IMG/VR virus record: IMGVR_UViG_3300021471_000006
Location: 45,486-109,485 of that record
Strand: one strand, 5' to 3'
DNA: 64,000 nucleotides
From: a virus
Below are positions 9,930 to 28,747 of the stretch, piece by piece. A program made the position numbers and the translations under genes. The notes beneath the pieces are model-generated. The model did no database searches and was not told the origin of the DNA. It was given only the letters and a program-made list of their open reading frames with translations. Numbering within the stretch: position 1 is the first letter of the stretch; every line of letters starts with the position of its first letter.

Positions 9930-10169
9930 ATGGCATATAAATATCCGGAAGGCACAGAAATCCTTTGCATTAAAAATGGAGAGCCTTTTGTAGCAGGAAG
10001 AATATATACTGTCTATCATAGTGAGAGGTGGAGAGAGGCTCACGGCTATAGGTTTAAAGATGTTGAGTGGGAAGAAGACCCGGGCTGGTCTCAGTCCTTT
10101 ATTGAAAGTCCCGACTATTTTAAGAAAGTAGAGAAAAAGGTAACAAGTTGGAGAAAATTAATAGAATGA
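9930..10169 (+). CDS. SH3-like small protein with C-terminal W-tag
   Basis: YKYPEGTEILCIK start; ends KKVTSWRKLIE. Confidence 0.75.
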   Translation: MAYKYPEGTEILCIKNGEPFVAGRIYTVYHSERWREAHGYRFKDVEWEEDPGWSQSFIESPDYFKKVEKKVTSWRKLIE

Positions 10170-10252
10170 AATTCAAATTAGGATTTAAAGAGAGAGACCT
10201 AGAACTTAATAATATAAACTTCTGGAGGCGTCATTTAAATGGGGAGATTTAA
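10166..10252 (+). CDS. 28-aa micro-protein consisting of MKFKLG start plus W-tag (not in ORF track)
   Basis: MKFKLGFKERDLELNNINFWRRHLNGEI; overlaps both neighbours. Confidence 0.5.
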   Translation: MKFKLGFKERDLELNNINFWRRHLNGEI

Positions 10253-10466
10253 AGTGGGAGACAAAATTAGATTTATTGAAAACGGAGACTTTTTACATAA
10301 TGATTACGGTATTAGTGAAAGTTGTGCAGGTCATACGGGAACTATTGTTGCGGAATACAGGAACTCTGAATATAGTATCAGATGTTCCTGTGGAATATTA
10401 TGGTTGGCTTTTGAAAGACATTTTACGTCCCCGAGAATAGATAATTGGAAAAAGGTAATAGAATGA
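10239..10466 (+). CDS. SH3/KOW-like small protein with W-tag
   Basis: RFKVGDKIR start; ends RIDNWKKVIE. Confidence 0.75.
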   Translation: MGRFKVGDKIRFIENGDFLHNDYGISESCAGHTGTIVAEYRNSEYSIRCSCGILWLAFERHFTSPRIDNWKKVIE

Positions 10467-10750
10467 CAATAGACCCAGAAACGAAAGAAGAACACATTAG
10501 TCCCGTTGGATTAGAACATCAGGGACCCCAAATTAGTAAAGGAGGCATTTATTATGCTAACATTAAACTTAGGCATTGGATTATCTGTCTTATTCAAGAC
10601 GCATACCCGGAACTAAAAGAACGTATGACTAACAACCCAAATGCCATTAACATCCTGTCGGCATTCATAGCTTTAGTTCCACTACAGACTAAGGGGAAAC
10701 TAACTCCCGAGTTAAAAAGAAAAATATTAAAAAATTATAAACTAATATAG
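10463..10750 (+). CDS. Hypothetical protein
   Basis: ATGA-coupled ORF. Confidence 0.65.
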   Translation: MTIDPETKEEHISPVGLEHQGPQISKGGIYYANIKLRHWIICLIQDAYPELKERMTNNPNAINILSAFIALVPLQTKGKLTPELKRKILKNYKLI

Positions 10751-10758
10751 GTGATAAA

Positions 10759-11028
10759 ATGACAACACTTTACAATAGTAGGTACGACCATTTTAGACGT
10801 GGTAGAGTAAGTATAGAAACTGCAGAAACAGGCAGAAGCAAGTGCCAGAAATGTAATAGAATAATAGGTAAGGGAGAGCCCCGACTTGTTTACGACGGAT
10901 ATAATTATAAATATTGGTGTAATGCCTGCACTTTAAGAGAGTTAAAAAGGGAATTTGAAAAATTAGAGAAAATCTTGAGTGTTTCTTGGAGAGCCCGAAT
11001 AGAGGCAGAGCCAGAGGTGGAAAGATGA
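10759..11028 (+). CDS. PARP-type Zn-finger protein with W-tag
   Basis: IETAETGRSKCQKC...I.KGE.RL...WCNAC; SVSWRARIE. Confidence 0.7.
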   Translation: MTTLYNSRYDHFRRGRVSIETAETGRSKCQKCNRIIGKGEPRLVYDGYNYKYWCNACTLRELKREFEKLEKILSVSWRARIEAEPEVER

Positions 11029-11171
11029 AACTAATCTTTAATATGTATATAAAGAGAGAAGATATGGGAAAAGAAGAGGCTAAGAAACTTGCAATAGAAA
11101 CCGGTATAGCAATACAAGATTTTCAAATGAAATATCCTGTAGAGTTTGAAGGTGTTGAATTTGAAGATTGA
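11025..11171 (+). CDS. Small hypothetical protein
   Basis: GAGGTGG RBS, ATGA overlap. Confidence 0.55.
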   Translation: MKLIFNMYIKREDMGKEEAKKLAIETGIAIQDFQMKYPVEFEGVEFED

Positions 11172-11490
11172 CCTATCTGTTTACAGTTTAGTTTTTCGAG
11201 CAAAAGAACTTAACTCAAAGTTCTCCCTAAAAGAGGGAGACTTAATCGTAGCTAGAAAGGAATGTCATAATGATATGGAAAAGAAAGTTGTAGAGGTAAT
11301 ACAAGTAAATCACCCAATAGAAAAAAAAGGATATGTAGTTAAAGTTTTAGAGAATATGGACACACGCCTATTACCGAGATTTTCCTCTGGAACAATTTGG
11401 AATATGAGGCATATGAAAAACTCTATACATACGGACTGCGACATATATAGAAAAACTAAAATAAAAAGTTGGAGGGAGAAAATAAGATGA
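11146..11490 (+). CDS. SH3-like protein with W-tag (start uncertain)
   Basis: LKEGDLIV; ends TKIKSWREKIR. Confidence 0.65.
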   Translation: MKVLNLKIDLSVYSLVFRAKELNSKFSLKEGDLIVARKECHNDMEKKVVEVIQVNHPIEKKGYVVKVLENMDTRLLPRFSSGTIWNMRHMKNSIHTDCDIYRKTKIKSWREKIR

Positions 11491-12110
11491 AAATAACAAC
11501 CGTGAATGGTAAAGAAATTAAGAAAGATATGCTTGAGGAACTGTCCCCAAGGATAGAGGATATTAGAAAATGGTTTGAGAAACAAGAGTTTTATAAAACG
11601 GATGAATTATGTCCAGATTATTTTGAACTAATCTATTCTCCGGAATGTATTAAATTAATTAAATCCAGAGTAGACCTTACTATGCTAACAGAAATAAATC
11701 CTGAGGCTGTTAATTGGTATGACTTAATAAGACAAAACGAAAGGGAGGTAGAAGATATGAGTCCGGAAATACTAGAGAAACGATATGAATTTGAAGAAAC
11801 AGGCATTTGTGAAGAACACATATTAGTACCCACAACGCCGTTCAAGACAGCTGCCGGAGAATTTAAAGTAGAGAACTGTGCAATATGTAGACAGGCATGG
11901 GTAACAATAGGAGAAACAACTTACCAAGACGATTTACTTAAATTACTTAGGTGGATAGCATACATAAGCATTAAACAGGAGCAAAAAGAGAAGAATGTTA
12001 AAGACATTATGAACTTATTGGGGCTCGAAGAAGAAAAGAAACAACAAATAATAGTGGGCGATTTAATGACTACAACAAACCCGTCTAAAGAACTAATGGA
12101 GATAATTTAA
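11487..12110 (+). CDS. Hypothetical protein
   Basis: ATGA-coupled; CEEH and CAIC possible Zn ligands. Confidence 0.7.
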   Translation: MKITTVNGKEIKKDMLEELSPRIEDIRKWFEKQEFYKTDELCPDYFELIYSPECIKLIKSRVDLTMLTEINPEAVNWYDLIRQNEREVEDMSPEILEKRYEFEETGICEEHILVPTTPFKTAAGEFKVENCAICRQAWVTIGETTYQDDLLKLLRWIAYISIKQEQKEKNVKDIMNLLGLEEEKKQQIIVGDLMTTTNPSKELMEII

Positions 12111-12335
12111 ATGGAAAATTTTACCTTTGGTGATATAGAAATAGGAGATAAGTTACTAATGGGAGAACGACAACGCAGAATTAGTTTTCCTGTTGTTGAA
12201 ATTCATAAAAAATCTAATAAGGTCTCAATTAGAAAGTTAAGCGGATATATATATAAAGTAAATCCTCTAAAATATTCGGCACTTAGAAAGTCCAAAAAGA
12301 AAAAAGTTAAATCTTGGAAAAGGTTAATAGAATGA
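12111..12335 (+). CDS. SH3-like small protein with W-tag
   Basis: DIEIGDKL; ends KKVKSWKRLIE. Confidence 0.7.
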   Translation: MENFTFGDIEIGDKLLMGERQRRISFPVVEIHKKSNKVSIRKLSGYIYKVNPLKYSALRKSKKKKVKSWKRLIE

Positions 12336-12571
12336 AAAGTATTAAAGTCAAAAACTTTATAATAGAAGAAGGAGATATATTAGGAAATAACCATTATTGG
12401 TATAAGGTTTTGAAACTTTATCTTCCCAAGAAGAAAGGCTGTTTTATAGCACAGCTTGTTCAAATCGAAAATAACAAAGAGAAAGGGCTTCCATTTGATT
12501 ATGAGGACTTTGATTGGATTACAAAAATAAAGAAATCTAAAATTAAAAATTGGAGGGAGTACATTGAATAA
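12332..12571 (+). CDS. SH3-like small protein with W-tag
   Basis: IEEGDIL; ends SKIKNWREYIE. Confidence 0.7.
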   Translation: MKSIKVKNFIIEEGDILGNNHYWYKVLKLYLPKKKGCFIAQLVQIENNKEKGLPFDYEDFDWITKIKKSKIKNWREYIE

Positions 12572-12833
12572 AGAAATTAAAATAGGCGATGAAGCAAGAA
12601 TAAATCCTGACATTACTTGTGAACTATGCGGAGCTAGAGAGGTACTTGTTAAAACTAATTTAGGAACTTGGGTGTCTAATCTAATTTACTATATGGGACA
12701 ACTTGTTTGTAAGGACAGAGCAGATTGTATTAGAGCTCGGGAACTTAATAGCATAGGAGTTTACGGTATTGATAACGGAATTATAGTTGAACAAAATGGA
12801 GAAACTATTTTTGAGGCGTTTAAAGAAAAATGA
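12564..12833 (+). CDS. Hypothetical Zn-binding protein
   Basis: IKIGDEAR; CELC...CKDRADC. Confidence 0.6.
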   Translation: MNKEIKIGDEARINPDITCELCGAREVLVKTNLGTWVSNLIYYMGQLVCKDRADCIRARELNSIGVYGIDNGIIVEQNGETIFEAFKEK

Positions 12834-13387
12834 TTAAACTAACGGCAGAACAAATCTATAATTTATTTGTCCACAGAAAGGATGTATTCGCAAGACAATA
12901 CAAAGGTGGCTTTTATATTCCCGTTAGAAGACCCATAACAGTTGCAGATATAGAAAAACATTTAAGAGGAGAGGCAACATATGGACTGTATTGTTTAGAT
13001 TTAGATAATACAATAAAGTGGGCTTGTATAGATTTAGACGCAGATATAAAGGGAGAGAATAAGGAAGCAGAGTTACGCCGGATGGAAAAAGACAGCAAAG
13101 TTATTTATGAATTATTCCACGATTTCCCTAGAATGAGAGAGTTTAGTGGTAGAAAAGGTTATCATATTTGGATATTTTTTAATCCGCCCGTAACAGCAGA
13201 ATTTGGGAGAACTTTAGTTCGTGCTAGACTAAATAGCATTCAGGCCCTAAAACACGAGGTATATCCGAAACAAACTGAACTAAATAAAAATCGAAAGTAT
13301 GGAAATTTAGTTAAAATTCCGCAAGCAGTTCATCAGGTTTCAGGAAAACGAAGTAAAATACTTGAAATGTGGGGTATAAGACTATGA
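12830..13387 (+). CDS. Archaeo-eukaryotic primase (AEP) catalytic-domain protein
   Basis: Motif I CIDLD, motif II SGRKGYHIW, motif III GNLVKIP. Confidence 0.85.
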   Translation: MIKLTAEQIYNLFVHRKDVFARQYKGGFYIPVRRPITVADIEKHLRGEATYGLYCLDLDNTIKWACIDLDADIKGENKEAELRRMEKDSKVIYELFHDFPRMREFSGRKGYHIWIFFNPPVTAEFGRTLVRARLNSIQALKHEVYPKQTELNKNRKYGNLVKIPQAVHQVSGKRSKILEMWGIRL

Positions 13388-13635
13388 GAAAGTTCAAGAT
13401 AGGAGATAGAGTAAAATTAATTAACAAAGATATGGTGTTTTTTAAAGTGGGAGAAACGGGTACTATAAGATGTTTTTACGAGGGTGCTAGACCAGATGTG
13501 GGAGTTGAATGGGATACTAAAAGTAATCATAGACACTCTTTACACGGAAACTGCAAAGAAGGATACGGCTATTATGTTTTTGAGGAAGATTTAGAACTAG
13601 AAAAGATAAAAAGCTGGAGGGAACTGTTAAAATGA
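13384..13635 (+). CDS. SH3/KOW-like small protein with W-tag
   Basis: KFKIGDRVK...VGVEWD; ends EKIKSWRELLK. Confidence 0.75.
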   Translation: MRKFKIGDRVKLINKDMVFFKVGETGTIRCFYEGARPDVGVEWDTKSNHRHSLHGNCKEGYGYYVFEEDLELEKIKSWRELLK

Positions 13636-13841
13636 AATTTAAGGTTGGAGAGATAGTAAGACAAATAAAAAATCTATCGAAAAGTGAAGACCCGTTATGT
13701 GAGATAGTGGAAATAAGAAAAATCGGAAAAAAAACAGAAATAGTGCATAGGCACTTAAATAAGGATTTTACATCTAGTGCCCTTGAAGACAACTTTGAAA
13801 AAGTTGAAATTGATAATTGGAGGAAGATTATTGACGTTTGA
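13632..13841 (+). CDS. SH3/KOW-like small protein with W-tag
   Basis: MKFKVGEIVR; ends EIDNWRKIIDV. Confidence 0.75.
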   Translation: MKFKVGEIVRQIKNLSKSEDPLCEIVEIRKIGKKTEIVHRHLNKDFTSSALEDNFEKVEIDNWRKIIDV

Positions 13842-13879
13842 AACGATTATTCGGAAAGAGGACTGTTCCCAAGAAAAGC

Positions 13880-13893
13880 AAAACATTTATAAA
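13880..13893 (+). promoter_or_regulatory. BRE-TATA promoter upstream of the ubiquitin-like locus
   Basis: AAAACATTTATAAA, same consensus as other promoters in the window. Confidence 0.6.
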
Positions 13894-13957
13894 TAAAACT
13901 GATTTACTAGAGAATAACAAAAAATTAACTTATGGTAACAGCAAAACGGAGAATAAA

Positions 13958-14716
13958 ATGTTTAAGAAATTTGAATTAGCTAGACAAATGTATAATCAGT
14001 ATTGGGGCTATCTGACACCGTTCCAAAAACGAAACGTTGTACAGGCATTAAATAATAATAAAACTATTATTAAACCAAGAAAAACAGTTTCGTCGGTTAA
14101 AAAAACCAAATTAGCTGATAAATATAAGGCAATAAGAAAGAAAGATTGTCCTAATAAAATTCGTGTAAATAATTTAATTGCAGATTTAATAAAAAAGGAC
14201 TCACGCTTAAAAAAGGGAACTGCTCTAATTTTAGACGCAGAAACTACCCTTACTTTAAGAACTCTGTTAGCTATCGGGTATCCCAAGTATTTGATAGATA
14301 GTGTCAATTATATTGAGGACACCTATAAACAAATCAAGGCACATCACCGTCAAACCTATCATATGCTATTAGGCGACTATATAGATATGATAGGTAAGAT
14401 ACCCGAAAATAAACATTCAGTTACGGTTGCGTTTCCAGATTATTGTTGTAGTATTAAAGGAAATAAAGATATGAAACCAAGAGAGGACTTAATCAAGTTT
14501 TTCACTTATAAGTTATTAGCTAAACCTAGTTTATTAGCCATAACTTTCTCTTGGAGAGCAGGGAAGAAAGAGGTGAAAGAAGGGCATTTCGAGTCCCTAA
14601 CTAAATTAGATAATTTAATAACTCAAACTGCGAAAGATAACGGCTATCTAGCAGTTATTAAAGACGGACTATCTTATAAAGGTAGTATGTTTTTTAGAAT
14701 ATATAAAATACATTAG
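13958..14716 (+). CDS. Possible SAM-dependent methyltransferase-fold protein with N-terminal LARQMY module
   Basis: GGAG RBS at ATG 13958; ALILDA...FPDYC...LAITFS Rossmann-like pattern (weak). Confidence 0.45.
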   Translation: MFKKFELARQMYNQYWGYLTPFQKRNVVQALNNNKTIIKPRKTVSSVKKTKLADKYKAIRKKDCPNKIRVNNLIADLIKKDSRLKKGTALILDAETTLTLRTLLAIGYPKYLIDSVNYIEDTYKQIKAHHRQTYHMLLGDYIDMIGKIPENKHSVTVAFPDYCCSIKGNKDMKPREDLIKFFTYKLLAKPSLLAITFSWRAGKKEVKEGHFESLTKLDNLITQTAKDNGYLAVIKDGLSYKGSMFFRIYKIH

Positions 14717-14827
14717 TTATGTTTCTGGCACGAAAAGGTAAGCCCAGTTAGTAGGACGAAGAATAGTATCTCGTGTTTTTAACGAGAGAAGGTAGTAGTC
14801 TATTTGATACGTGTTTGGTACGGATCC

Positions 14828-14861
14828 GGGGGACATTTTAGTCCCCCTTCATTTTTATTTT
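14828..14861 (+). terminator. GC hairpin plus T-tract
   Basis: GGGGGAC-ATTTTA-GTCCCCC then T-rich run. Confidence 0.65.
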
Positions 14862-14929
14862 CCCTTATCGGGGATTAGGGAAGTTAAAATATGTCCCCAC
14901 AAAAAAACAGTATTGGAGGTGTCCGCAAA

Positions 14930-15274
14930 ATGGCTACAAAAGGACAATTAGCTAGACAGATGTATGGTAAAGCACTATACGAGTTGTCAGCAGGAGAGAA
15001 AGCCGCAGTAACAAGAGCATTTAACTCACAAGGAGCTTCTAGCTCAAGTGCCACAGTTACAGCTGAAGTGGGAAGAATTGGTGTCAATGGCACCCAAAGA
15101 TGTATTTTATCCGAGGGTGAAACAGTTGGCGAGTTAATCGAGCAGTCAGGCTTCAAACTTGACAGCAAGAAAGAAGGAGTTGTTGCTCAATCAACCGGAA
15201 AGAGGGTTTTACTTTCTGAACCTGTTGTACACGGGGAAACCTATGTTATAACACCAGAAATAAAATCAGCTTAA
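14930..15274 (+). CDS. Ubiquitin-like (beta-grasp) modifier with N-terminal LARQMY module
   Basis: GETVGELIEQSG...EPVVHGETYVITPEIKSA ThiS/MoaD/Ub-like pattern; directly upstream of E2/JAB/E1 genes. Confidence 0.75.
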   Translation: MATKGQLARQMYGKALYELSAGEKAAVTRAFNSQGASSSSATVTAEVGRIGVNGTQRCILSEGETVGELIEQSGFKLDSKKEGVVAQSTGKRVLLSEPVVHGETYVITPEIKSA

Positions 15275-15337
15275 ATAAATTTTTTGGGGCATTTGCCCCA
15301 CTTTTCATATTCATTATACAATAAACGGAGGATTAAA

Positions 15338-16885
15338 ATGATAAAAACATTTGATAAATTTGTATTGGAAAGCTTTATAAGGGAAACTATGAAAGCTTAT
15401 ACTTATAAATGGATAGACGACAACACCCTAGAATTTTATAAAAAAGACAAGGTTGTTGGAAAATATAAATTAGATAATACACGCATAGAAGCAAAAGGAA
15501 AAGTAATAGAGAAATTTCTTAAAAACTTAATTAAACAAAAAGAAGAGGCAGATAAGAACAAACTAACAAAACAGAAAGCCGCAAAAAGTGTATTCAAAAC
15601 AATTTATAACGATTTGAATAGCTACAACGGACTTGCAGATAATTATATTATGTTTGACCTTATGAATAAACAGTTTAAAAAAATAGGGGTTGAAGAGGTC
15701 ATAATTAGAAAAACAATAAATTCAAATAATCTAGCGCCTAAGAAAATAACTTTAAATATGGACGGAAATCCACAAGAAAGAATAAGCGTTTACAATGATG
15801 AAGGATATTATACTAGATTAAGGGATTTTCTGTTTGCAGAATACGAACACGACGTTAAGGAAAAATCTAGTTTTTATGTTTCTAACAAGCCGAAGTGGCT
15901 TTTTCAAGCCGAGAACGAGAAAATAAAAGATATTAAACTCCGAAATATGTTAGTTGGAAGATATTATCTGGAAAGAAACTTTATACATTTGTACTTTAAT
16001 CCGTTTTTAGTTAAAAAAATTCTTCCATTAGGGTCCGTTATGCCAAAGATATTTATAGAGTTATTTAAGGAGTTACAAAAACTAAATATTAAGGTACGAG
16101 ATACCTCAAGTTTCTCTAAAAAAATGTTTGTTGCAACATTTTTAGAAGGTTCCAGAAAAAGACTAAAAAGACTAATTCAGGATAAAAAAGATAATATAAA
16201 TAGAATAAGTGATAGAGAAACCCAAATTAGATTAGCCTTAGAAAGGCTTGCAGAGATAGAAGAAGAAACCGCTTTTATTGAAAAGAATATTCGTATGAAA
16301 GGAAAAGGAATGCTTAAGGAACTAGACACAGTTAGAAAGCTAAAATTCATAAAAGATTTAAAAATGGGCACAGATTACATAGAATTAAAATATGTTCCCA
16401 CAACTTTAACTTTCTCTGATTTTAAACGTTCAGATAGGGGAAAGGGATATGGGAAGAGAACAATTTATCTAGGAGAGATAACTGCAAGAATAACTCCCGG
16501 AAGTTTCACTATTAAAAACTCAATTAATATAGACAGAGGCGGACACGCACATTCTCACGCAGACGGAAATCCCGGAAGTCCCTGTTTTGGTAGTGGGGGT
16601 GGAAGAAATAAAATATATGAACTGCTTTCCCAAAACAAGTTTACCGAACTTGCCAAGATACTTTGGTTTTGGATTAAAACCCACAGAAACGAAGGTGCAT
16701 ATGTGAAGATGTGGACTATTTATGACTATATGTTGAGCAACGGTTATCCTGTTTGGGACGAAAAGGGCAACAGAATTAAAATTAATGACGCAAAGAGGCT
16801 GAAATCCAAAGAGCAAAGAAAGTTAGATAAGTCCTCAAAATATGCGACTAATATAAAGAAATTCGCCGATTTCAAATTGGTGTAA
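15338..16885 (+). CDS. Prokaryotic E2-like (UBC-fold) protein with long N-terminal and coiled-coil region
   Basis: C-terminal HAHSH...GSPCFG resembling the E2 HPH/N...C[LF]G catalytic region; operon context. Confidence 0.6.
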   Translation: MIKTFDKFVLESFIRETMKAYTYKWIDDNTLEFYKKDKVVGKYKLDNTRIEAKGKVIEKFLKNLIKQKEEADKNKLTKQKAAKSVFKTIYNDLNSYNGLADNYIMFDLMNKQFKKIGVEEVIIRKTINSNNLAPKKITLNMDGNPQERISVYNDEGYYTRLRDFLFAEYEHDVKEKSSFYVSNKPKWLFQAENEKIKDIKLRNMLVGRYYLERNFIHLYFNPFLVKKILPLGSVMPKIFIELFKELQKLNIKVRDTSSFSKKMFVATFLEGSRKRLKRLIQDKKDNINRISDRETQIRLALERLAEIEEETAFIEKNIRMKGKGMLKELDTVRKLKFIKDLKMGTDYIELKYVPTTLTFSDFKRSDRGKGYGKRTIYLGEITARITPGSFTIKNSINIDRGGHAHSHADGNPGSPCFGSGGGRNKIYELLSQNKFTELAKILWFWIKTHRNEGAYVKMWTIYDYMLSNGYPVWDEKGNRIKINDAKRLKSKEQRKLDKSSKYATNIKKFADFKLV

Positions 16886-19833: not shown

Positions 19834-20169
19834 GTGAAAAACAAAATGGCTTACTATTGTGAAAATTGTGATAATGCCGAAGAGTTTGAAGTGTGGGCAG
19901 AATTTACTGAGTGGGGAACAGAACAACTCTTTATAGATGGAGAGGGCTCTATCCAAGATTATGGAGAGAGAGAAACCTCGGACTCCGAGAGTGGAGAATG
20001 GGGTCCGGTGGAATGTAGTAGATGTGGAGAAGAGGCAGAAGAATTAACCGATGAGGAAATAATGGAGATTAGAAACAGGGGAAGAGAGCCAGAAGAAGAG
20101 GTGCCCAGAGTGACGCCGGATAAACGGAAAAATTGGAAAAATATAATAGAGGGTAATGAAAAATCGTAA
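19834..20169 (+). CDS. Acidic Zn-ribbon protein with W-tag
   Basis: CENC...CSRC; KRKNWKNIIE. Confidence 0.7.
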   Translation: MKNKMAYYCENCDNAEEFEVWAEFTEWGTEQLFIDGEGSIQDYGERETSDSESGEWGPVECSRCGEEAEELTDEEIMEIRNRGREPEEEVPRVTPDKRKNWKNIIEGNEKS

Positions 20170-20834: not shown

Positions 20835-21077
20835 ATGCCACAGATAAATATACAGTTAGGAGAAATTACTGCTATAATTAATTTTGAAAGTGATAAGGAA
20901 TTAAATAAAGATGAGAAAATTAAGATAATTAAGATTTTAAGAGGGGAAATATTAACAATTTTGAAACTAAAGAGAGAGTTCCCCTATCTCACACTTAAAA
21001 GCAATGGAACATTAATATGGGACGGAGAAAAATATCTATCTAGACCGGGTGTCTTTGGAGGAATTTATTATGAATAA
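20835..21077 (+). CDS. Hypothetical protein
   Basis: Operonic ORF. Confidence 0.55.
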   Translation: MPQINIQLGEITAIINFESDKELNKDEKIKIIKILRGEILTILKLKREFPYLTLKSNGTLIWDGEKYLSRPGVFGGIYYE

Positions 21078-21324
21078 AATAAATTGGAAAAAACAGTTAG
21101 AACTTCCGTCTGTAGGAGATATATATAGACTAAAAATAGCTATTGATATATCTGAATGGAGTTTTAATCCCGGAGAAGAAGGTTATTTTGAAAATTTGTG
21201 GATAGTACAAAGTACTAACGCTCCGGGCAAAGTTGCCCGTATTGAACTAACAGATATGAAAAATAAAGAAATAGTATGGTGGGTTTCATTAAAGTTTCTA
21301 AAGAAAAATTTTGTTAAAACATAA
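21070..21324 (+). CDS. SH3-like protein with W-tag at the N-terminus
   Basis: MNKINWKKQLE then PSVGDIYR. Confidence 0.65.
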   Translation: MNKINWKKQLELPSVGDIYRLKIAIDISEWSFNPGEEGYFENLWIVQSTNAPGKVARIELTDMKNKEIVWWVSLKFLKKNFVKT

Positions 21325-21518: not shown

Positions 21519-21701
21519 ATGGTATCAATAGCACCCGCCAAAAGCAGTAGAACAACCTGCAAGATATGTAAAAAGAAAATTAAAAAAGGAGAATTAAGAG
21601 CAACTTATACAAGTTGGAGAGTTGGATATTATCCGTCTAATAGTTATAAATGTTATGAATGTTATAGAGGGCCGATTAGTTGGAAAGAAAGAATAGGTTA
21701 A
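21519..21701 (+). CDS. PARP-type Zn-finger protein with W-tag
   Basis: AKSSRTTCKICKKKIKKGELR...CYEC; PISWKERIG. Confidence 0.7.
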   Translation: MVSIAPAKSSRTTCKICKKKIKKGELRATYTSWRVGYYPSNSYKCYECYRGPISWKERIG

Positions 21702-21702: not shown

Positions 21703-21945
21703 ATGAAAACTCCAAAATTTAAAGTAGGAGATTTGCTCAGATGTAAAAAAATTCGAATAAAAAATGACTATGCTGGAGAGGGATATGAAGAAGGTCTTAT
21801 TATTAAGGTTGAAGAAGTTGTTGTATATTCAGATGTGGTTGTATATTTTCCCGGGAAAAACGGTGACGGGGTTTTTGAACGTTTTTTAGAATATGATAAA
21901 ATAAATAATTGGAGGCAAGTAATATGTCAGAAGGAAAAGAATTGA
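21703..21945 (+). CDS. SH3/KOW-like small protein with W-tag
   Basis: PKFKVGDLLR; KINNWRQVI. Confidence 0.75.
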   Translation: MKTPKFKVGDLLRCKKIRIKNDYAGEGYEEGLIIKVEEVVVYSDVVVYFPGKNGDGVFERFLEYDKINNWRQVICQKEKN

Positions 21946-22868
21946 AAGTTGCTTTAAAGGAAGAGCCTTTAAAGCCACAGAAAAGATTAAGCCCCACAAG
22001 TATTAATACTTACTTTGAATGTCCTAGAAAGTATTTTTATACTTATATAGCTAAAATTAAGATAAAACCTAGTATTCACTTGGTAAAGGGAATGGTAGTG
22101 CATAAAGCACTAGAAGATTTCTTTAGAGGTTACAGAAAGAATTTAGAAGAACATATGGTTAAGAGGCTGGAAAACGCTTGGAAAAAACATTATAAAGACC
22201 TTAGAGATTTGGAATTACCAGCTGAGGAACTGGAAACGGCAAAAGAAGATTGTTTAGGAATGGTAACAGAATATTACATCGCCTTAGATAGAAAGATGAA
22301 GATGTTACAAAAAGTAGGAAAAGCAAGTAACGAGGCACACGCATATTACTTATTGAAGCCCAAGTTCAGAGAACTTTGGATAGAAGATAAGGACTTGCAT
22401 TTGTGTGGATATATAGACAGAGTACATCAGGACTATGACGGAATAGTAACACTTGGAGATTACAAAACAAGCAGTAAATACGGTGTGGGATTAGAAAGCA
22501 AATATAAAAGACAATTAGCCTTATACTCTCTTCTGTACGCAAATAAAGAGAAGAGTTTGCCCCACTATGTTGCAGTTATTTTTCTGCGATATGGAGAGGA
22601 ATACCTTCTCGAGGTGACACCATCGCTCCTAAAATTAGCACGTGAAACTGTTAGATATGTTTACGGGCATACTCGTTCTGTTGATATAGAAGACTATCCC
22701 CTTAAGGAGGGGAAGTTATGTCGGTGGTGCACCTTTAATAAGATTTGCTCTGGAGAGGAAGAATGGGAGAAAGTTCTGAGGGAGCAGAAACTAAAGAAAA
22801 TTGTAGAGGAACGAGAGAAAAAAGAAAAGAAAGAAAAATCTAAAAAGGTAGAGGAAGATGTTTTATGA
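21924..22868 (+). CDS. Cas4/RecB-like PD-(D/E)XK exonuclease with Fe-S cluster cysteines
   Basis: LSPTS...CPRKY, GYIDRV, DYKT, QLALY, CRWCTFNKIC. Confidence 0.88.
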   Translation: MSEGKELKVALKEEPLKPQKRLSPTSINTYFECPRKYFYTYIAKIKIKPSIHLVKGMVVHKALEDFFRGYRKNLEEHMVKRLENAWKKHYKDLRDLELPAEELETAKEDCLGMVTEYYIALDRKMKMLQKVGKASNEAHAYYLLKPKFRELWIEDKDLHLCGYIDRVHQDYDGIVTLGDYKTSSKYGVGLESKYKRQLALYSLLYANKEKSLPHYVAVIFLRYGEEYLLEVTPSLLKLARETVRYVYGHTRSVDIEDYPLKEGKLCRWCTFNKICSGEEEWEKVLREQKLKKIVEEREKKEKKEKSKKVEEDVL

Positions 22869-23058
22869 CCAAATGACCATTACTGTAATGTGGTGGCTTA
22901 TCTTTTCAGGAATGATATTTTGGATATTAATACTTTCAGTATTAATAGAAGAATATAAATATGAATTAAAGGAATATTGGAATATCCTTTGTTCATTACT
23001 CAAACTTTGGAAGAAAAGACCCGAGAAAATTAAATCGTGGAGGAAGAGAATAGAATGA
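22858..23058 (+). CDS. Membrane-anchored small protein with W-tag
   Basis: N-terminal hydrophobic helix; ends EKIKSWRKRIE. Confidence 0.7.
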   Translation: MFYDQMTITVMWWLIFSGMIFWILILSVLIEEYKYELKEYWNILCSLLKLWKKRPEKIKSWRKRIE

Positions 23059-23348
23059 AATTCAAAGTTGGAGATAAAGTAAATGTTATAGATTATATAA
23101 ATGTCGATATTTCAACGGGGAGAATAGAGAAAGTGCCTGTTGAAGATATAGAATACCCCTGGGCAAAAGTAATAGAGGAGAAAATTGAATGTGAAATAAA
23201 AAACATTGAGAAAGAGGAGAACTATCCATATATTGTTAAGGTTTATATTCCAGAGGATGACGACTATTATAGTGAGGGTTTTACAGAAACGGAACTAGAG
23301 CATATTAAGATTAAAAATTGGAAACTAAAATTGGAAGGGCGTTTGTAA
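23055..23348 (+). CDS. SH3/KOW-like protein with W-tag
   Basis: MKFKVGDKV...FTETELE; KIKNWKLKLE. Confidence 0.75.
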   Translation: MKFKVGDKVNVIDYINVDISTGRIEKVPVEDIEYPWAKVIEEKIECEIKNIEKEENYPYIVKVYIPEDDDYYSEGFTETELEHIKIKNWKLKLEGRL

Positions 23349-23371
23349 TGCCCCAATAGTAAAATAAATGG

Positions 23372-23439
23372 GAGGAGTCTAGTTCAATAGGCAGAACATC
23401 TTGTTAGAAGGTTAAGGGTTCGAGTCCCTTGGCTCCTCG
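23372..23439 (+). ncRNA. tRNA-like RNA lacking a normal anticodon arm (pseudo-tRNA)
   Basis: Acceptor GAGGAGTC/GGCTCCTC, D arm GTTC-AATAGGCA-GAAC, T arm AAGGG-TTCGAGT-CCCTT; anticodon arm is only TCT-TGTT-AGA. Confidence 0.7.
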
Positions 23440-23465
23440 CCTATCGATTTAGATTTTGGGGACAC

Positions 23466-23538
23466 GGGCTGTAGGTGAAGATGGCGTCACGCCCGCCTTG
23501 CAAGCGGGAGACGGGGAGTTCGAGTCTCCCACAGTCCA
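23466..23538 (+). tRNA. tRNA-Ala(TGC)
   Basis: Acceptor GGGCTGT/ACAGTCC with G3:U70, anticodon arm CCCGC-CTTGCAA-GCGGG, T arm GGGAG-TTCGAGT-CTCCC, discriminator A, no encoded CCA. Confidence 0.88.
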
Positions 23539-23555
23539 CTTTAGAGGTAAATAAA

Positions 23556-24083
23556 ATGATATGGTTCACCGCAGATTATCATCTCGGACACAAGAACATT
23601 ATAAAGTATTGTGAACGCCCTTTTAAGAATGTAAAGGAGATGGACAAAACTATTATAAGAAATCATAATTCACGAGTGAAACCAAACGATACGGTTTATT
23701 TTTTGGGAGACTTTTGTTTTAGAAACACTAATAAGGATAGAAAAGCAGAACGATACATTAAAAAACTTAACGGAAGATTTGTCTTTATAAGAGGTAACCA
23801 CGATAACAATAACTCTTTAAAGACTAGACTTTATGCCTGTATAATAAATATGGGGAATATGTCCATTTTTTTAGTTCATAATCCTATAAATTATATGAAG
23901 AACTATCATATGACGTTTCACGGGCACGTTCACGGATTATGGAAGTTCAAATACGAAAAAGATAATCACCCGTTGGTAAATGTAGGCGTAGATGTATGGA
24001 ACTTTATGCCTGTTACGTTTAATGAGATTATGAAAGAGTTTCAAAGGTGGAAGAAAATAGAAAACCAATATTTAAAAAAATAG
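23556..24083 (+). CDS. Calcineurin-like metallophosphoesterase
   Basis: DYHLGH, LGDF, GNHD, HGHVH, NVGVD. Confidence 0.9.
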   Translation: MIWFTADYHLGHKNIIKYCERPFKNVKEMDKTIIRNHNSRVKPNDTVYFLGDFCFRNTNKDRKAERYIKKLNGRFVFIRGNHDNNNSLKTRLYACIINMGNMSIFLVHNPINYMKNYHMTFHGHVHGLWKFKYEKDNHPLVNVGVDVWNFMPVTFNEIMKEFQRWKKIENQYLKK

Positions 24084-24096
24084 AGGTGAAATACAA

Positions 24097-24426
24097 ATGA
24101 AAAAGAAACATAAAATACTAAAGTATGAACCCAGCAAATCTTGGAAATTTAGACAAGAGTGGGGACGAAAAGGCTATGAACTGATTAACATAACACCGCT
24201 TTGTGAAGCAAAATTAGGAGTCAGCGGAAGCTGTAACGACTTTAATGAACCCGATGAAAGCATACATCATATACAATTATGGTATAGGGACGAAGTAATA
24301 GCAAATATAGTAGATGGAATAGAAATTATAGACGAAGATAAATATTGTTACTTTCTAACCGACAAATGGAAAGGAGACAAGATTTCGGATTTTATAATAT
24401 TTAGAAAAGTGAGTAAACCAATATGA
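24097..24426 (+). CDS. Hypothetical protein
   Basis: GAGGTGA RBS. Confidence 0.65.
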   Translation: MKKKHKILKYEPSKSWKFRQEWGRKGYELINITPLCEAKLGVSGSCNDFNEPDESIHHIQLWYRDEVIANIVDGIEIIDEDKYCYFLTDKWKGDKISDFIIFRKVSKPI

Positions 24427-24623
24427 GAACAATTGAAGGATTTATGATAAAAGTTAGTTGCTCTAGATGTGGAACATATCTTTACACCCACGACGATATT
24501 AGAGGACTTAGACAAGAGTTAGAATTGTTTCCGCTTGTTTGTGGAAAATGTGGTTTTAATGAAAGAATAAAGGCAAGAACTGTTCATAGAAGAATACTAG
24601 ACGGTGCTATGGTGGAGGCGTAA
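24423..24623 (+). CDS. Zn-ribbon protein
   Basis: CSRC...CGKC. Confidence 0.6.
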   Translation: MRTIEGFMIKVSCSRCGTYLYTHDDIRGLRQELELFPLVCGKCGFNERIKARTVHRRILDGAMVEA

Positions 24624-24624
24624 A

Positions 24625-25185
24625 ATGAAAACGTGGGAACAGAGAAGAGAGAAGGCAATAAGAGACGGCTGTTATTCTCTTAATGAGACCTCTAGAATAA
24701 AATTAGCATTATCTTTTAAAGAGATAAAAGAAAGGCTAAAAGATAAAGAGATATTTAGGGAGTCCACGTTTGAGGGCGTTGTACGACACTTAAAAAGTGA
24801 GGTCTATTTAAAGAGAATTAGAAACACTAAAAAGGATTTGACGGAAGGAATGTTTGACTATGAGATTAGTTTAAGAGAAATGTTCCAAAAATTATTTTGG
24901 GAAGAATATGTTTATAGCTACGACATTTGGGACGATACTGATTTAAAACAAGTTCAAAAACGGGCTGAAATCTTAACAAAGATAAAAAACTTTCTAGATA
25001 AGAACCCAAAGTATCTAGAATATTGTGGGAGCAGATACCAAAATTCGGAACTATGGAATAAAATTAAAAGATTAACGGGAATGACTCTCTCTATGAGAGC
25101 CTGGGGCGGTTTGATGGCAGCCTATATGAACTCTAAAATAGAAAAAAGAAAGTACGATTATATGAGTTACTATTATAATTGGTGA
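24625..25185 (+). CDS. Hypothetical protein
   Basis: GGAGG RBS; 186 aa. Confidence 0.7.
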   Translation: MKTWEQRREKAIRDGCYSLNETSRIKLALSFKEIKERLKDKEIFRESTFEGVVRHLKSEVYLKRIRNTKKDLTEGMFDYEISLREMFQKLFWEEYVYSYDIWDDTDLKQVQKRAEILTKIKNFLDKNPKYLEYCGSRYQNSELWNKIKRLTGMTLSMRAWGGLMAAYMNSKIEKRKYDYMSYYYNW

Positions 25186-25190
25186 ACGAA

Positions 25191-25394
25191 ATGGAAGATA
25201 AAATGAAAGAATTTTGGGACAAATATGTAGAGGACGAATTACATAAAGAGAAAACTCTTGAACCGATAATTAAGAATATAGAGAAAATATTTACAGTAAA
25301 GAACATAAAAACTAGAAGGCAAGCTCTAGCTCTTATTTTAAGAGGCTATTTTGATGATTTATTAGAATATTGTAATCAGTTTGAGGAAGAATGA
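25191..25394 (+). CDS. Small helical protein, paralog of 34364..34576
   Basis: PII.NIEK...R..AL..IL.GYF.DL shared. Confidence 0.7.
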   Translation: MEDKMKEFWDKYVEDELHKEKTLEPIIKNIEKIFTVKNIKTRRQALALILRGYFDDLLEYCNQFEEE

Positions 25395-25642
25395 AAACAA
25401 TTAAAGAAATTTTATTCTGTTGGTTATTGGGCTATCACAAGATAGAACAAAGGAGTCTTACAGTTAAAGAGAGAGAACAAGATATAAACATTAGTTGGTT
25501 TTTCTGTCCTATCTGTGAACATAATTTCTTTGCTTATGAAGAAGATGAAGAGGAGTATGAATTACAGATGAACGTAAGTGAGAAACTTACCGACCAATTA
25601 TTTATAGACAGGGTTTTAGGTGATAAAATATGGAGGAAGTAG
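25391..25642 (+). CDS. Hypothetical Zn-binding protein
   Basis: C....H...CPIC. Confidence 0.6.
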   Translation: MKTIKEILFCWLLGYHKIEQRSLTVKEREQDINISWFFCPICEHNFFAYEEDEEEYELQMNVSEKLTDQLFIDRVLGDKIWRK

Positions 25643-25866
25643 TATTAGAATATATTGATGATACGGATAGAGTTGCTGTAGTTCCCGTTTATGATAAAGA
25701 AACCAAATCAATAGGAAGTCCCATAGAGGTTACAACAAAGTTTGACGCAGAAGAAAAGTATTCTGTGATAGGTTATATAATAGACGGCGAAGTACAGTTG
25801 CACGAAGAAACGGAAGACTACGAAATAGACTATTATTCGGAATTTGGAATAGAAGAAGATGACTAA
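25630..25866 (+). CDS. Acidic hypothetical protein
   Basis: GGTGA RBS. Confidence 0.6.
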   Translation: MEEVVLEYIDDTDRVAVVPVYDKETKSIGSPIEVTTKFDAEEKYSVIGYIIDGEVQLHEETEDYEIDYYSEFGIEEDD

Positions 25867-26086
25867 AAAACCTAAGTTTAGAATCGGAGATAGAGTTGTC
25901 GTAGCCCGCAACAAGTTCAATGGGGGCGACTATCCAATAGGAACAGAACTAGTTGTAAAAGAGATTTTATCTGACTCAATAGCGGGTATTTACTGTTATT
26001 TCTTTATAAACAAATATATAGGAGTATATGAGCCCAATCTAGAGTTGGCAAAAATATCTTCTTGGAAAAAAGTTATTTGTCCTTAG
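25859..26086 (+). CDS. SH3/KOW-like small protein with W-tag
   Basis: PKFRIGDRVV...GVYEPNLE; KISSWKKVICP. Confidence 0.75.
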   Translation: MTKKPKFRIGDRVVVARNKFNGGDYPIGTELVVKEILSDSIAGIYCYFFINKYIGVYEPNLELAKISSWKKVICP

Positions 26087-26148
26087 TCCTATTCCTAAAC
26101 GAAACATTTATATAGTTAAAGATTTATTATTATTTCTATGGTGAGTTT

Positions 26149-26433
26149 ATGGCTAGACTTAAAGCACTTGATAAGGCATTTCTTTTAGTTAAAAATGAAA
26201 ATGTTTTTAACAGCAGTGAGACGCCTAACTACGAATATTGGATAGTGAAAGGCAATGGTAGACCCACTTATGATGTTATTTACCATAAGAGAAAAGACAT
26301 TTACACTTGCGGATGTAAGAATATGCGATTACTGCCCTGTAGTCATATATTAGCAGTTAAGATAGTTAAAGGGGAAATAAATGGAAAAAATAATAAGACC
26401 TATAAAAGAAATAGTTTGGAACTTGTTCTTTAG
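26149..26433 (+). CDS. SWIM Zn-finger protein
   Basis: YTCGC...PCSHILAV; TATA at 26101-26114. Confidence 0.75.
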   Translation: MARLKALDKAFLLVKNENVFNSSETPNYEYWIVKGNGRPTYDVIYHKRKDIYTCGCKNMRLLPCSHILAVKIVKGEINGKNNKTYKRNSLELVL

Positions 26434-27196
26434 GAACGATATCGTATTTGTACAAAACCATTATGTTCCGGCACAACAATTACAGTTAATAGCAGAATTA
26501 GAAACTACCTTAGATATGGTAAAACAATTACAGAAAAATTCAGAAGAAGAAAACAAGGAACTAGAAAAGTATATTACAGAACTTGAGGAAAAAATTAGAG
26601 TACTTAAAAACGAAGAACGAACAGTTACCAAACCCGAGTGGCTAAAGTATGCTAGTGTTTTCATTCCGAAGGTTATAGTGCCTTCAAAATACGGAGACAG
26701 AACAGTTTCTATACAACCTAATGATATATATACAAGTTCTAACAGAATAAGAAATATAGTAGCACAAAATAAATGGAAGAAACTTTATATGTCCGACAAG
26801 AAAGCCTGTGCTTATGAAATTTGGAAATATGTAATAAAGGCTATAAAATACGAACTAGATAAGTCAGAGGATTGGAGATATAGTCCTACTACACTAGCAT
26901 ATGAGAAAGGTGATTGTGAAGACGGAACCATACTATTTCTAGACCTTGCTAAAGAAGCCGGTTTTAAGGCGGATGAAGTTTTTAATGGACTGGGGTGGGT
27001 AAAAACCAATAGTGGAAACTTTGGACACTCCTTTCCAATATTAAACTATGGAGAAGGCTGGTTTATTTATGAAACTACCATTGACTATGTGCCAAGCTCT
27101 CCTATGAAGTTCGACGGAAGTAACTATGACGCTTCTTTTGGAGTAGTGAATTGGAGATTTGCTGGAAAGATAAACAATTCCAAGCAACAAATATAG
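26381..27196 (+). CDS. Transglutaminase-like cysteine protease with N-terminal coiled coil
   Basis: P..TL...KGDCEDG, GHSF, YETT putative Cys-His-Glu triad. Confidence 0.75.
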   Translation: MEKIIRPIKEIVWNLFFRNDIVFVQNHYVPAQQLQLIAELETTLDMVKQLQKNSEEENKELEKYITELEEKIRVLKNEERTVTKPEWLKYASVFIPKVIVPSKYGDRTVSIQPNDIYTSSNRIRNIVAQNKWKKLYMSDKKACAYEIWKYVIKAIKYELDKSEDWRYSPTTLAYEKGDCEDGTILFLDLAKEAGFKADEVFNGLGWVKTNSGNFGHSFPILNYGEGWFIYETTIDYVPSSPMKFDGSNYDASFGVVNWRFAGKINNSKQQI

Positions 27197-27342
27197 GTGA
27201 GAAGAATGGTTAAAGAAAAGATACACCGTGGAAAGGCTAAACAATCTGCTATAAACGAATTGTGGAAAGAACACGAAAAGAAAGAGAAAGAGAAACAACG
27301 AAAAATAAAGCGATTTAAAGCATATAAAATTTTAGACTAGTA

Positions 27343-27590
27343 TTTATACTAGAAAGAAAAAATAATTGAGTTTTGGTATGTTTACCTGCTCCCAGTGGCA
27401 AAATTATGAAACAGTTGATTACCAATGAGAAAAACACACCATTTAATAAACATCTTTAATAATATATGTATGTTGTTAATAGTAGTTATAACAGTATTAA
27501 GAATGTTTTAACAACCTATATATGTTTTAAGACTAGTTATATATTTTTAACGAACAGTTATATAACATCGTTGATGGCGTTATTCGTCAT
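27343..27590. other. Non-coding AT-rich region with conserved box; candidate replication origin
   Basis: Box shared with 50986-51049 followed by a very AT-rich tract with short repeats (ATGTTTTAA x2, AGTTATA x3). Confidence 0.4.
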
Positions 27591-27613
27591 ATAACTAAGG
27601 GAGGCGATTCATT

Positions 27614-27862
27614 TTGGGAATACCGGAAACATTTGAAGTCATTTGGAGCGGCTGTAACCATACAGAGAAAGAACGTGGCTCTGTCTTTGATGGTGATTAT
27701 AACCGTTTCTGTGCTAAATGTGGCAATCTATTGACAGGCACTTGGCAGTGTATTTTGTGTAATGTAAAGCCAATTAAGATAGACATAGATGTCGAAAAGA
27801 TAAAAGCACAACTAGAGATTTGTCCTAAGTGTGGAGAATTTTTTAATTATCAACTTAGATAG
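27614..27862 (+). CDS. Double Zn-ribbon protein
   Basis: CAKC, CILC, CPKC. Confidence 0.6.
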   Translation: MGIPETFEVIWSGCNHTEKERGSVFDGDYNRFCAKCGNLLTGTWQCILCNVKPIKIDIDVEKIKAQLEICPKCGEFFNYQLR

Positions 27863-28106
27863 GACAATGGACGAGATTTTAACATTAGAGGAAACAGTAC
27901 GGCTTCTTCTAGAAGAGAAAATAGAGTTTGTTGATTTTCTTAGCGGACCGCCCCAAATAAGACTTTTTGAGCACAATACGTGCCACTATTATAGACTTAA
28001 TCTGGACAGGAGACCATTGGTTTATGAACATTATGCTTCCCATTATGTAGGTGAGATGAATGAAAAAACAGGAAAGAATAAATCAGGCTATGAGATTATT
28101 GAATAG
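27831..28106 (+). CDS. Hypothetical protein
   Basis: Operonic ORF. Confidence 0.5.
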   Translation: MENFLIINLDRTMDEILTLEETVRLLLEEKIEFVDFLSGPPQIRLFEHNTCHYYRLNLDRRPLVYEHYASHYVGEMNEKTGKNKSGYEIIE

Positions 28107-28419
28107 TTCTTTTAGGACCGACTTTAATTCTATTAGATTAAACACACACAACACTTTAGAACACGAAATAAGTAAACTTATAGAAGCTTATAGACTTATT
28201 AAAGATGATAAGAAGAAAGTTATTACAGAGGCGATATTCCATAATGGAACTAGAGCGGACATATTTATTCCAGAGGACTTTAGAGTGATAGAAATTCTAC
28301 ACTCTGAAAAGGAAGCAGAGGCTCTAGAAAAGACTGGAACATATCCTGAACAACTTGATATTACTCTTAAGACAAGTGAAGAGGTTTTAAAAAATGCCGG
28401 AAATTTATTTTACCAATGA
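28060..28419 (+). CDS. Putative PD-(D/E)XK nuclease-fold protein
   Basis: TEA.F...RADI...IEILHSE. Confidence 0.5.
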   Translation: MKKQERINQAMRLLNSSFRTDFNSIRLNTHNTLEHEISKLIEAYRLIKDDKKKVITEAIFHNGTRADIFIPEDFRVIEILHSEKEAEALEKTGTYPEQLDITLKTSEEVLKNAGNLFYQ

Positions 28420-28747
28420 TAGAAGCATAATTGATACTTTTTATGACTTTTATTTAACGGACAATATTTCTTCTCAAGAAACAGCTGAAACTGATAATAT
28501 TTTAAGTAAATTAACAGAGAAATACGGGCTTGCAAACATATATATAGATTTTGATTTAACACAAGAGATAATCAATATTACTTGCGTATCAAAAGAGAAT
28601 ACCGCTTATAAGACTGGGATAACAATGCGATTATATAATGAGGCGATGGACAAGATACATTTAATTGAGAACAGTATTAAAAAAGCTGTGCATTTTTTAG
28701 ACATTTCTAAAAAAATCTCTTGGAGAGAAATAATAGAGAGGCGATGA
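28394..28747 (+). CDS. Hypothetical protein with W-tag
   Basis: Ends KKISWREIIERR. Confidence 0.7.
   Translation: MPEIYFTNDRSIIDTFYDFYLTDNISSQETAETDNILSKLTEKYGLANIYIDFDLTQEIINITCVSKENTAYKTGITMRLYNEAMDKIHLIENSIKKAVHFLDISKKISWREIIERR

Follow-up and report, generated by a model that had tools for sequence, protein, structure and literature searches.

A 64,000-nucleotide stretch of viral DNA (bases 45486-109485 of the 109,485-bp IMG/VR record IMGVR_UViG_3300021471_000006, which is linear and estimated to be 77% complete), referred to here as the window, was analysed for a ten-residue peptide tag that recurs at the ends of many of its small predicted proteins. The window encodes RadA (Rad51 family, E 6e-71), a PCNA-like protein, a clamp loader, a family-B DNA polymerase (PolB), an exonuclease, a ribonucleotide reductase with a probable intein, a ThiF-type E1, a tail protein, an AEP primase, a PD-(D/E)XK nuclease and a phosphoesterase. 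This predicted gene set fits a tailed virus of an archaeon, and the virus derives from hydrothermal-vent metagenomes.

The core of the tag is [KR]-[IV]-x-[SN]-W-[KR]-x-x-[IL]. An original prediction, made by reading this DNA, had listed 17 copies, and a six-frame search recovered all of them in frame with the open reading frames (ORFs) to which they had been assigned. An 18th copy (..DNWRERIE, then the stop) lies at record position 45326, 139 bases upstream of the window. Terminal enrichment was tested on 224 rough gene calls against 2000 residue shuffles, with C-terminal defined as no more than about 20 residues from the end. The strict motif was found in 16 terminal copies and two elsewhere, compared with a shuffle mean of 0.11 and a maximum of 4; in 12 proteins the tryptophan is the sixth residue from the end. 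These counts far exceed chance and show that the tag is real, as had been proposed. Roughly one third of the small early proteins of this virus, and of those of at least two relatives, end in it, and no description of it was found in the literature searched. Looser look-alikes occur at record positions 31106-32095, 36314-36919 and 40608-40784 (..DYWREEIKNDENN, ..FREWKDVIIK and ..GIWKQHLKKKRKR), in larger or unrelated proteins, and these may be due to chance.

One relative, G001 (IMGVR_UViG_3300033145_001237, 47 kb), was found using a degenerate DNA pattern for the peptide, which has seven matches in this contig. It is syntenic with the window across the primase, nuclease, methyltransferase-like gene, ubiquitin-like protein (Ubl, ending PEIKSA), E2-like protein, JAB protein, E1 and RadA, and its PCNA is 40% identical to that of the window virus. 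In the corresponding zone 29 of the 46 small ORFs end in K-I-[TEDI]-N-W-[KR]-[EQK]-R-[ILF]-[KRI]. The observation that tagged genes bracket the Ubl, E2-like, JAB and E1 genes in the window held on re-examination, and the same arrangement is present in G001. The second relative is represented by JGI contigs L004-L006, which have a GC content of 28% and three tags in 4.9 kb. Searches with the exact window-type junction DNA pattern gave no match, those with K-I-K-[SN]-W-R-E gave chance matches only, and a scan of one genome per species gave scattered single matches with no multi-tag contig among the matches listed, and hence no lead to a host. Scans of viral contigs with the nuclease, the primase, JAB, an FKVGD alignment (the SH3-like family described below) and protein P0011 returned distant relatives or none, and no close relative of the window virus was found among GenBank phages. 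The tag is confined to a small clade of tailed viruses of archaeal type.

When the copies are compared between the two larger contigs, the tryptophan is invariant. At position -3, I or V stands in 13 of 18 window copies (at least 15 if tags one residue shorter are allowed) and I in all 29 G001 copies, and W+1 is K or R in 18/18 and 27/29 respectively. About half of the window copies have a hydrophobic residue at W+3, where 29/29 of those in G001 have R, and the flanks are basic. The residue six before W varies (K, L, P, I, Y and others in the window; P, S, K, N and F in G001). Untagged ATGA junctions in the window genome end in E or K as well, so these final residues do not distinguish the tag.

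The original prediction described the bodies that carry the tag as unrelated, which is true of about nine carriers that have no detectable kinship, but six belong to a single SH3-like FKVGD family, one is probably a remnant of it and two are paralogues. All 17 window carriers lie on the plus strand. Some are translationally coupled to the next gene by an overlap of stop and start, and six are uncoupled, with no start at ribosome-binding distance (W codons at 10987, 20134, 21085, 23319, 26063 and 28721); the peptide is kept in all six.

The SH3-like carriers share an N-terminal F-K-V-G-D strand. With the tags trimmed, a hidden Markov model (HMM) of the SH3 body matches all six at E 1e-10 to 1e-19 and matches none of the other carriers. 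The first (10239..10466, 75 aa) ends in RIDNWKKVIE, with its W codon at 10446 in the context TGG AAA and an SH3-body HMM value of E 3e-16; the Shine-Dalgarno (SD) sequence of the next gene, AAGGTAA, lies within the codons after W. The 83-aa protein at 13384..13635 ends in KIKSWRELLK (W codon 13615), has a match to phrog_22041 (E 1.5e-10; PHROGs gave nothing for most carriers), and has outside homologues, P0008 and P0021, that bear the same tag. Its AlphaFold2 (AF2) model is an SH3-like barrel (mean confidence score, pLDDT, 77.5) with a short helix at residues 78-82 (W-R-E-L-L), and the nearest folds to this body are generic SH3-like domains such as CAP-Gly, CPH, YorP and PsaE. It is followed by a 69-aa FKVGE protein (13632..13841, EIDNWRKIIDV, W codon 13818), which has a TTGA overlap with the methyltransferase-like gene. 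The 80-aa protein at 21703..21945 continues from KINNWRQVI (W codon 21910) into CQKEKN, with TGGAGG 8 nt before the ATG of the nuclease gene. The 97-aa protein at 23055..23348 continues from KIKNWKLKLE (W codon 23319) into GRL and is uncoupled, being followed by tRNA-Ala; its G001 orthologue, G1_23306, ends in KITNWTERIK. The last, a 75-aa FRIGD protein (25859..26086, KISSWKKVICP, W codon 26063), had been noted as having no coupled downstream gene, and the next ORF indeed begins from 26149; a NifZ-like SH3 match (Atlas model) spans its residues 1-66, leaving the tag outside the core. Between the gene at 9930 and that at 10239 lies a 28-aa ORF (10166..10252, MKFKLGF..DLELNNINFWRRHLNGEI, W codon 10223), whose MKFKLG start and LEL..I..W end suggest a remnant of this family; it is probably a collapsed paralogue consisting of the N-terminus plus the tag without a body.

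The FKVGD domain is widespread elsewhere, with 2296 library proteins matched at E <= 1e-3, often as tandem repeats. Outside these contigs the tag is found only on a few single-domain members (P0008, P0010, P0011, P0014, P0019, P0021, P0105 and P0160). Proteins P0030-P0167 carry the domain in long tandem repeats, with up to 25 matched stretches per protein; in the clade of the window virus it is instead spread over many separate, translationally coupled genes, each of them tagged.

Two further carriers had been identified as PARP-type zinc fingers, and Pfam zf-PARP (PF00645) does match both at E 5e-4 and 1.6e-5, although the scores of 21 and 26 bits fall below the gathering cut-off of 39.3. They are paralogues of each other (E 7e-7). 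The 89-aa protein (10759..11028, SVSWRARIE, W codon 10987) has its tag 13 codons before the stop, away from the SD position, and the next gene has its own GAGGTGG. The 60-aa protein (21519..21701, PISWKERIG, W codon 21681) is matched over its N-terminal half by PARP1 zinc fingers in the PDB (E 8e-6).

The remaining carriers are mutually dissimilar and comprise a zinc ribbon, a membrane-anchored protein and proteins of 65, 74, 79, 79, 84, 114 and 117 residues. The 79-aa protein at 9930..10169 ends in KKVTSWRKLIE (tag DNA 10137-10166, W codon 10149) with an ATGA overlap; it matches the tagged G001 proteins G1_22305 (E 8e-11) and G1_16104, and no Pfam match was found for it. An ATGA overlap is also present at the 114-aa protein at 11146..11490 (start at 11146 or 11161, which is uncertain; KIKSWREKIR, W codon 11470) and at the 74-aa protein at 12111..12335 (KVKSWKRLIE, reading TGG AAA, W codon 12315). 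The second 79-aa protein (12332..12571, KIKNWREYIE, W codon 12551) is followed by a gene starting from TTG at 12564. The 66-aa protein at 22858..23058 (KIKSWRKRIE, W codon 23038, ATGA overlap) has one hydrophobic, presumably membrane-spanning, segment, and G001 also has tagged proteins with membrane segments. The 84-aa protein at 21070..21324 is unusual in carrying its tag at the N-terminus (MNKINWKKQLE, W codon 21085), ahead of a VGD-type body and with its own GGAGG 8 nt before the ATG; it may be an in-frame fusion of a tag with the downstream gene. The 117-aa protein at 28394..28747 ends in KKISWREIIERR (W codon 28721), and the gene after it starts from GTG behind a GAGAGG of its own. At the syntenic place in L004 there is a different protein, of 43 aa, which is also tagged (..KIVSWKNKLKK).

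The 107-aa acidic zinc-ribbon protein (19846..20169, KRKNWKNIIE then GNEKS, W codon 20134) is uncoupled and has three orthologues, with about 35-41% identity over the whole protein and 45% within the ribbon for that of G001. Across the four sequences the acidic linker is unalignable, and N-W are the sole invariant residues after the domain. One orthologue reads I-T-N-W-S-S-E-I plus six more residues, which indicates that the basic residues and the exact end are dispensable and that the core is I-x-N-W-x-x-x-I. In the AF2 model residues 79-107 have pLDDT below 50, but as the whole model is poor (pLDDT 49) the disordered tail is a weak hint. A GC-rich 14-mer, CAGAGTGACGCCGG, lies within this gene at 20106-20119, 15 bases before the W codon of the tag.

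The DNA encoding the tags is described here separately for the two sides of the W codon. Aligned window tags read TGG followed by AGG, AGA or AAA, and about half continue ..ATA GAA TGA, with the stop overlapping the next ATG. The usual ribosome-binding site (RBS) of the window genome is GAGGTGA, ending 4-6 nt before the ATG. In the TGG-AGG copies GGAG lies one codon too far upstream for this register, and in the TGG-AAA copies (7 of 18, in agreement with the report that several copies read this way) a separate AAGGT is found at the usual place, in the following codons. Arg at W+1 is encoded by AGG in 7 of 11 window cases against a usage of 11% (p 4e-5); the six uncoupled copies use only the genome-preferred AGA or AAA there. 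In G001, where 25 of the 29 tags have the ATGA overlap, the SD (AAGGAG or AGGGAG) falls in codons W+1 and W+2, a canonical 8 nt before the ATG, and AAG, AGG and GAG are used at these two codons above codon usage (p 2e-3 to 3e-6). An SD-type purine run 4-10 nt before an overlapping or abutting start accompanies 25 of the 29 G001 tags and about 12 of the 18 in the window.

Upstream of the tryptophan the picture is different. Synonymous sites of the window residues K-I-x-S/N follow genome codon usage, and Ser at -1 is drawn from both codon boxes (TCT four times, AGT three times, AGC and TCG), which bears out the synonymous variation that had been described. In G001 the pre-W codons likewise match usage (Ile at -3: ATA 17, ATT 11, ATC 1, p = 1; Thr: ACT 10, ACA 7, ACG 2), and identical pre-W residues share a codon in 52% of comparisons, the codon-usage expectation being 0.38-0.64. 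The invariant Arg at W+3 uses both AGR and CGN codons, and synonymous sites within the G001 tags are saturated. Among the 28 short carriers of G001, body identity is 20% and tag identity 69%, and this difference, together with the saturated synonymous sites, argues for selection on the peptide and not for recent duplication or gene conversion. At the G001 tag at 24232-24441 (reverse complement, rc), which is followed by a separate GAGGTGAT, the codons are AAA GAA AGA and the peptide is still WKERIK, and two of the L004 tags read TGG AAG and are not at SD distance from any start.

The tag is under purifying selection as a peptide. Its DNA is also dual-coded, serving in addition as the RBS of the next gene, so that an explanation by RBS constraint is half right. 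The earlier claim that conservation lies at the protein level and is not an SD artefact thus stands on codon statistics, uncoupled copies, relatives and orthologues, with the amendment that the DNA after W is partly RBS-shaped. Three other nucleotide-level readings were considered and rejected: T before GGAG as an extended SD, since T precedes GGAG everywhere in the window genome; a minus-one frameshift joining the arrays, since A-AAA-TGA of G001 could slip and GAA-TGA of the window cannot; and a promoter or TATA role for the A-rich part before W, which leaves the fixed residue order and the codon periodicity unexplained.

Near-identical DNA covering 9930-28747 is present in at least four sequencing runs from different studies (three hydrothermal vent metagenomes and one marine metagenome), and no RNA runs were listed among the runs that carry it. 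The contigs from four runs differ from the window by a handful of single bases, none of them inside any tag; being near-identical to the window, they are uninformative on selection acting on the tags. In the ribonucleotide reductase gene (window 36453-39461) Pfam hits indicate a LAGLIDADG-type insertion, which is probably an intein.

With moderate confidence we regard the tag as a candidate docking peptide, portable and C-terminal, that has spread over tandem gene arrays. Its carriers have bodies of five or more types: SH3-like FKVGD proteins, PARP-type zinc fingers, a zinc ribbon, membrane-anchored proteins and further ones without a match. In orthologues the tag is retained although body and linker diverge. 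Docking motifs are typically laid out in this way, as a short terminal motif that recurs on different bodies and is separated from the folded domain by a drifting linker. The three constant hydrophobic residues of the tag are spaced by three and four, and I(-3), W(0) and I/L(+4) could therefore line up on the same side of a short helix or turn. This side would plug into a pocket on one shared partner, and many fast-diverging small modules would thereby be gathered at one place in the manner of a PIP box (PCNA-interacting protein motif) or the tail of a single-strand-binding protein (SSB). The tag may have originated as the tail of the SH3-like family and been passed on to other ORFs at the repeated junctions between genes, through recombination or fusion; the 28-mer (10166-10252) and the N-terminal copy (21070-21324) are possible traces of this.

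Several findings weigh against this reading. The conservation after W comes in part from the ribosome-binding site, and the contrast in AGG use between coupled and uncoupled window copies is borderline (Fisher p 0.15 with copy 13818 counted as uncoupled; about 0.04 when it is recounted as coupled through its TTGA overlap). In the AF2 model of an SH3-like carrier the tag region has pLDDT of about 81, and the tag may thus pack on its own domain. Most G001 carriers belong to one family, so that the term portable rests on a minority of carriers, and the tag is found in only three virus lineages and some single metagenome proteins, which is thin sampling. Ten residues are also short for a stand-alone interaction.

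If a docking peptide is correct, one ten-residue handle gives a lever, through whatever it binds, on 18 to 29 proteins at once, among the small early proteins of archaeal viruses, almost all of which are of unknown function. If what it binds proves to be the Ubl machinery or the sliding clamp, the virus would be organising its takeover of the host in a new manner. Independently of the partner, the tag is a clean natural case of dual coding, in which the uncoupled copies are built-in controls that separate the two pressures.

The proteins of these viruses show further recurrent C-terminal endings. A second one, x-[SDNP]-L-F-stop (..TKSLF, ..KKDLF, ..IKPLF, ..EENLF, ..SESLF), is found on otherwise different proteins, at window 31008-31262 and in G001 (L032-L034, reverse) at rc 5167, 6059, 7091, 7323, 9536, 37680 and 37915, some of them in the replication module. 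It recalls the terminal-aromatic tails of SSBs, and the window virus and its relatives may use several terminal docking motifs. Neighbouring small-ORF pairs in G001 also share endings (..IKEWR twice at rc 8900-9273 and ..MEVTKR twice at rc 7750-8069), which suggests more families of small paralogues with conserved tails.

Among the alternatives, the one that survives best needs no hub at all: in the SH3-like FKVGD family the tag would cap the structure or mediate self-association, and in non-SH3 carriers it would be a passenger acquired through junction recombination. FKVGD-type proteins make up six of the window carriers and most of the 29 in G001, the conserved stretch in this family extends upstream (..FE..LEL.KI.NW), AF2 places the tag beside the barrel with fair confidence, and the 28-mer and the N-terminal copy resemble junction rearrangements. 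This account nevertheless appears rather unlikely to us, as zinc-ribbon orthologues from four lineages keep N-W behind a drifting linker (one copy being uncoupled and extended), the PARP-type zinc-finger and membrane-anchored carriers retain the tag too, and most FKVGD domains elsewhere lack it, showing that it is not needed for the fold.

The tag could instead dock variable modules on the E2-like protein, JAB, E1 or Ubl in the manner of F-box or PRANC adaptors, a reading that we consider improbable. In both large contigs tagged genes stand on either side of the Ubl, E2-like, JAB and E1 genes, and a short way downstream of E1, after some small ORFs, both viruses have the tagged zinc-ribbon gene. 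Substrate adaptors, moreover, are built in this way, with a constant tail on fast-diverging bodies (20% identity). Tags are found throughout the small-ORF region, however, in which the primase, nuclease and phosphoesterase also lie, and co-location is therefore weak evidence; the tag has 10 residues and not the 40-50 of an F-box, no carrier has an F-box or PRANC Pfam match, and the PARP-type zinc fingers suggest DNA transactions. In the fullest form of this proposal, to which we give the same low credence, the tagged proteins would be a virus-encoded adaptor library in which each module grips a different host or viral target while the W-tag plugs into the Ubl, E2-like, JAB and E1 system; if true, it would be a programmable ubiquitin-like targeting system of an archaeal virus. 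The related suggestion that the tag is a site of conjugation through lysine is unlikely, since K and R interchange at every basic position.

It is doubtful, to a similar extent, that the tag is a degenerate PIP-like tail that brings small proteins to the viral or a host sliding clamp. The core has the hydrophobic-x-x-aromatic pattern and stands at the terminus behind a loose linker, as does the PIP box (QXXhXXaa; PMC4929162), the virus encodes PCNA, at window 34602-35306, and a clamp loader, and several carriers have zinc fingers of DNA-end type. PolB itself (window 44750-44779) ends in Q-N-T-L-N-K-W-G-M and would be a clamp client that uses L-x-x-W with W as the sole aromatic. The tag, on the other hand, has no Q at -6 and has K or R at the position of the second aromatic, and 18 to 29 clients are many for one virus.

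Less probable still is a nucleic-acid signal only, with the peptide as the translation of an RBS or termination-reinitiation sequence at overlapping junctions, or of a recombination linker. The tags directly before an overlapping or adjacent start (12/18 in the window, 25/29 in G001), the SD-forming codons enriched after W and the final E or K that is frequent across the ATGA junctions of the window genome are all as expected from such a signal. The best-conserved part, K-I-x-N-W, however, lies upstream of the SD with free synonymous variation, TGG is out of register with the usual SD (GAGGTGA, 4-6 nt before the ATG), the peptide is kept in uncoupled, extended and N-terminal copies, and many ATGA junctions have no tag.

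That the tag is an amphipathic helix for membrane targeting, comparable to the C-terminal tails of MinD and FtsA, can hardly be credited: the tail is basic, tryptophan-containing and C-terminal and some carriers are membrane-anchored, yet Wimley-White sums are +0.6 to +5.4 kcal/mol compared with about -0.6 for MinD and about 0 for FtsA, each tag has only three hydrophobic residues, and one orthologue has an acidic version.

The docking peptide favoured here can be placed beside several known systems. Motifs of the PIP type (QXXhXXaa) on the partners of archaeal PCNA are terminal, follow a poorly conserved linker and bring many clients to one hub (PMC4929162). The tag resembles the PIP box and SSB C-terminal tails in being a motif of 8-10 residues that closes many unrelated proteins and is preceded by a linker of low conservation, and resembles the PIP box further in having a hydrophobic residue at position 4 and an aromatic at position 7. 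It differs in lacking Gln at position 1 and in having K or R at position 8, that of the second aromatic, with the hydrophobic residue at +4 conserved instead; unlike both systems, most of its carriers belong to one expanded family of tiny proteins, and the docking is putative.

As with the F-box and poxvirus PRANC adaptors, there is a viral multigene family with a constant C-terminal element and variable bodies, located beside ubiquitin-like conjugation genes. F-box and PRANC elements are folded domains of about 40-50 residues that bind Skp1, and poxvirus ankyrin-PRANC proteins serve cullin ligases, whereas the tag is a 10-residue peptide without a Pfam match whose link to Ubl is positional only. 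The LIR/AIM (Atg8-family interacting motif) has the form [WFY]xx[LIV] with acidic flanks, and the tag departs from it, with R at W+3 in 29/29 G001 copies, a hydrophobic residue there in about half of the window copies, and basic flanks. Hydrothermal-sediment Asgard viruses with E1-like genes have been reported, without such a tag (bioRxiv 10.1101/2021.07.29.454249).

The SH3-like body invites a comparison with CAP-Gly, which is among its fold matches (Foldseek probability 0.99, E about 0.02), as CAP-Gly domains read the C-terminal EEY/F tails of partners that include zinc-knuckle proteins. One idea, which builds on weak fold matches of the model, is that the SH3-like bodies themselves might be the partner in a CAP-Gly-like network of domains and tails; the match is, however, weak and generic, and whereas the EEY/F tails are acidic and end in an aromatic residue, the tag is basic and has its W at -6.

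At the level of gene arrangement, the hyperplastic regions of T4-type phages have mobile promoter-early stem-loop cassettes, which are non-coding and flank small ORFs. Here too, repeated junctions among small fast-evolving early genes could promote the shuffling of ORFs, although the tag repeat is coding, is conserved as protein and is saturated at synonymous sites. Likewise, as in translational coupling at ATGA, stop and start overlap and an SD in the last codons of the upstream gene constrains them, but unlike ordinary coupling a specific peptide is fixed upstream of the SD and persists without a downstream start. The tag thus behaves as a terminal short linear motif. It does not fit the sequence definition of a PIP box, nor is it an F-box, and it goes beyond a coupling sequence.

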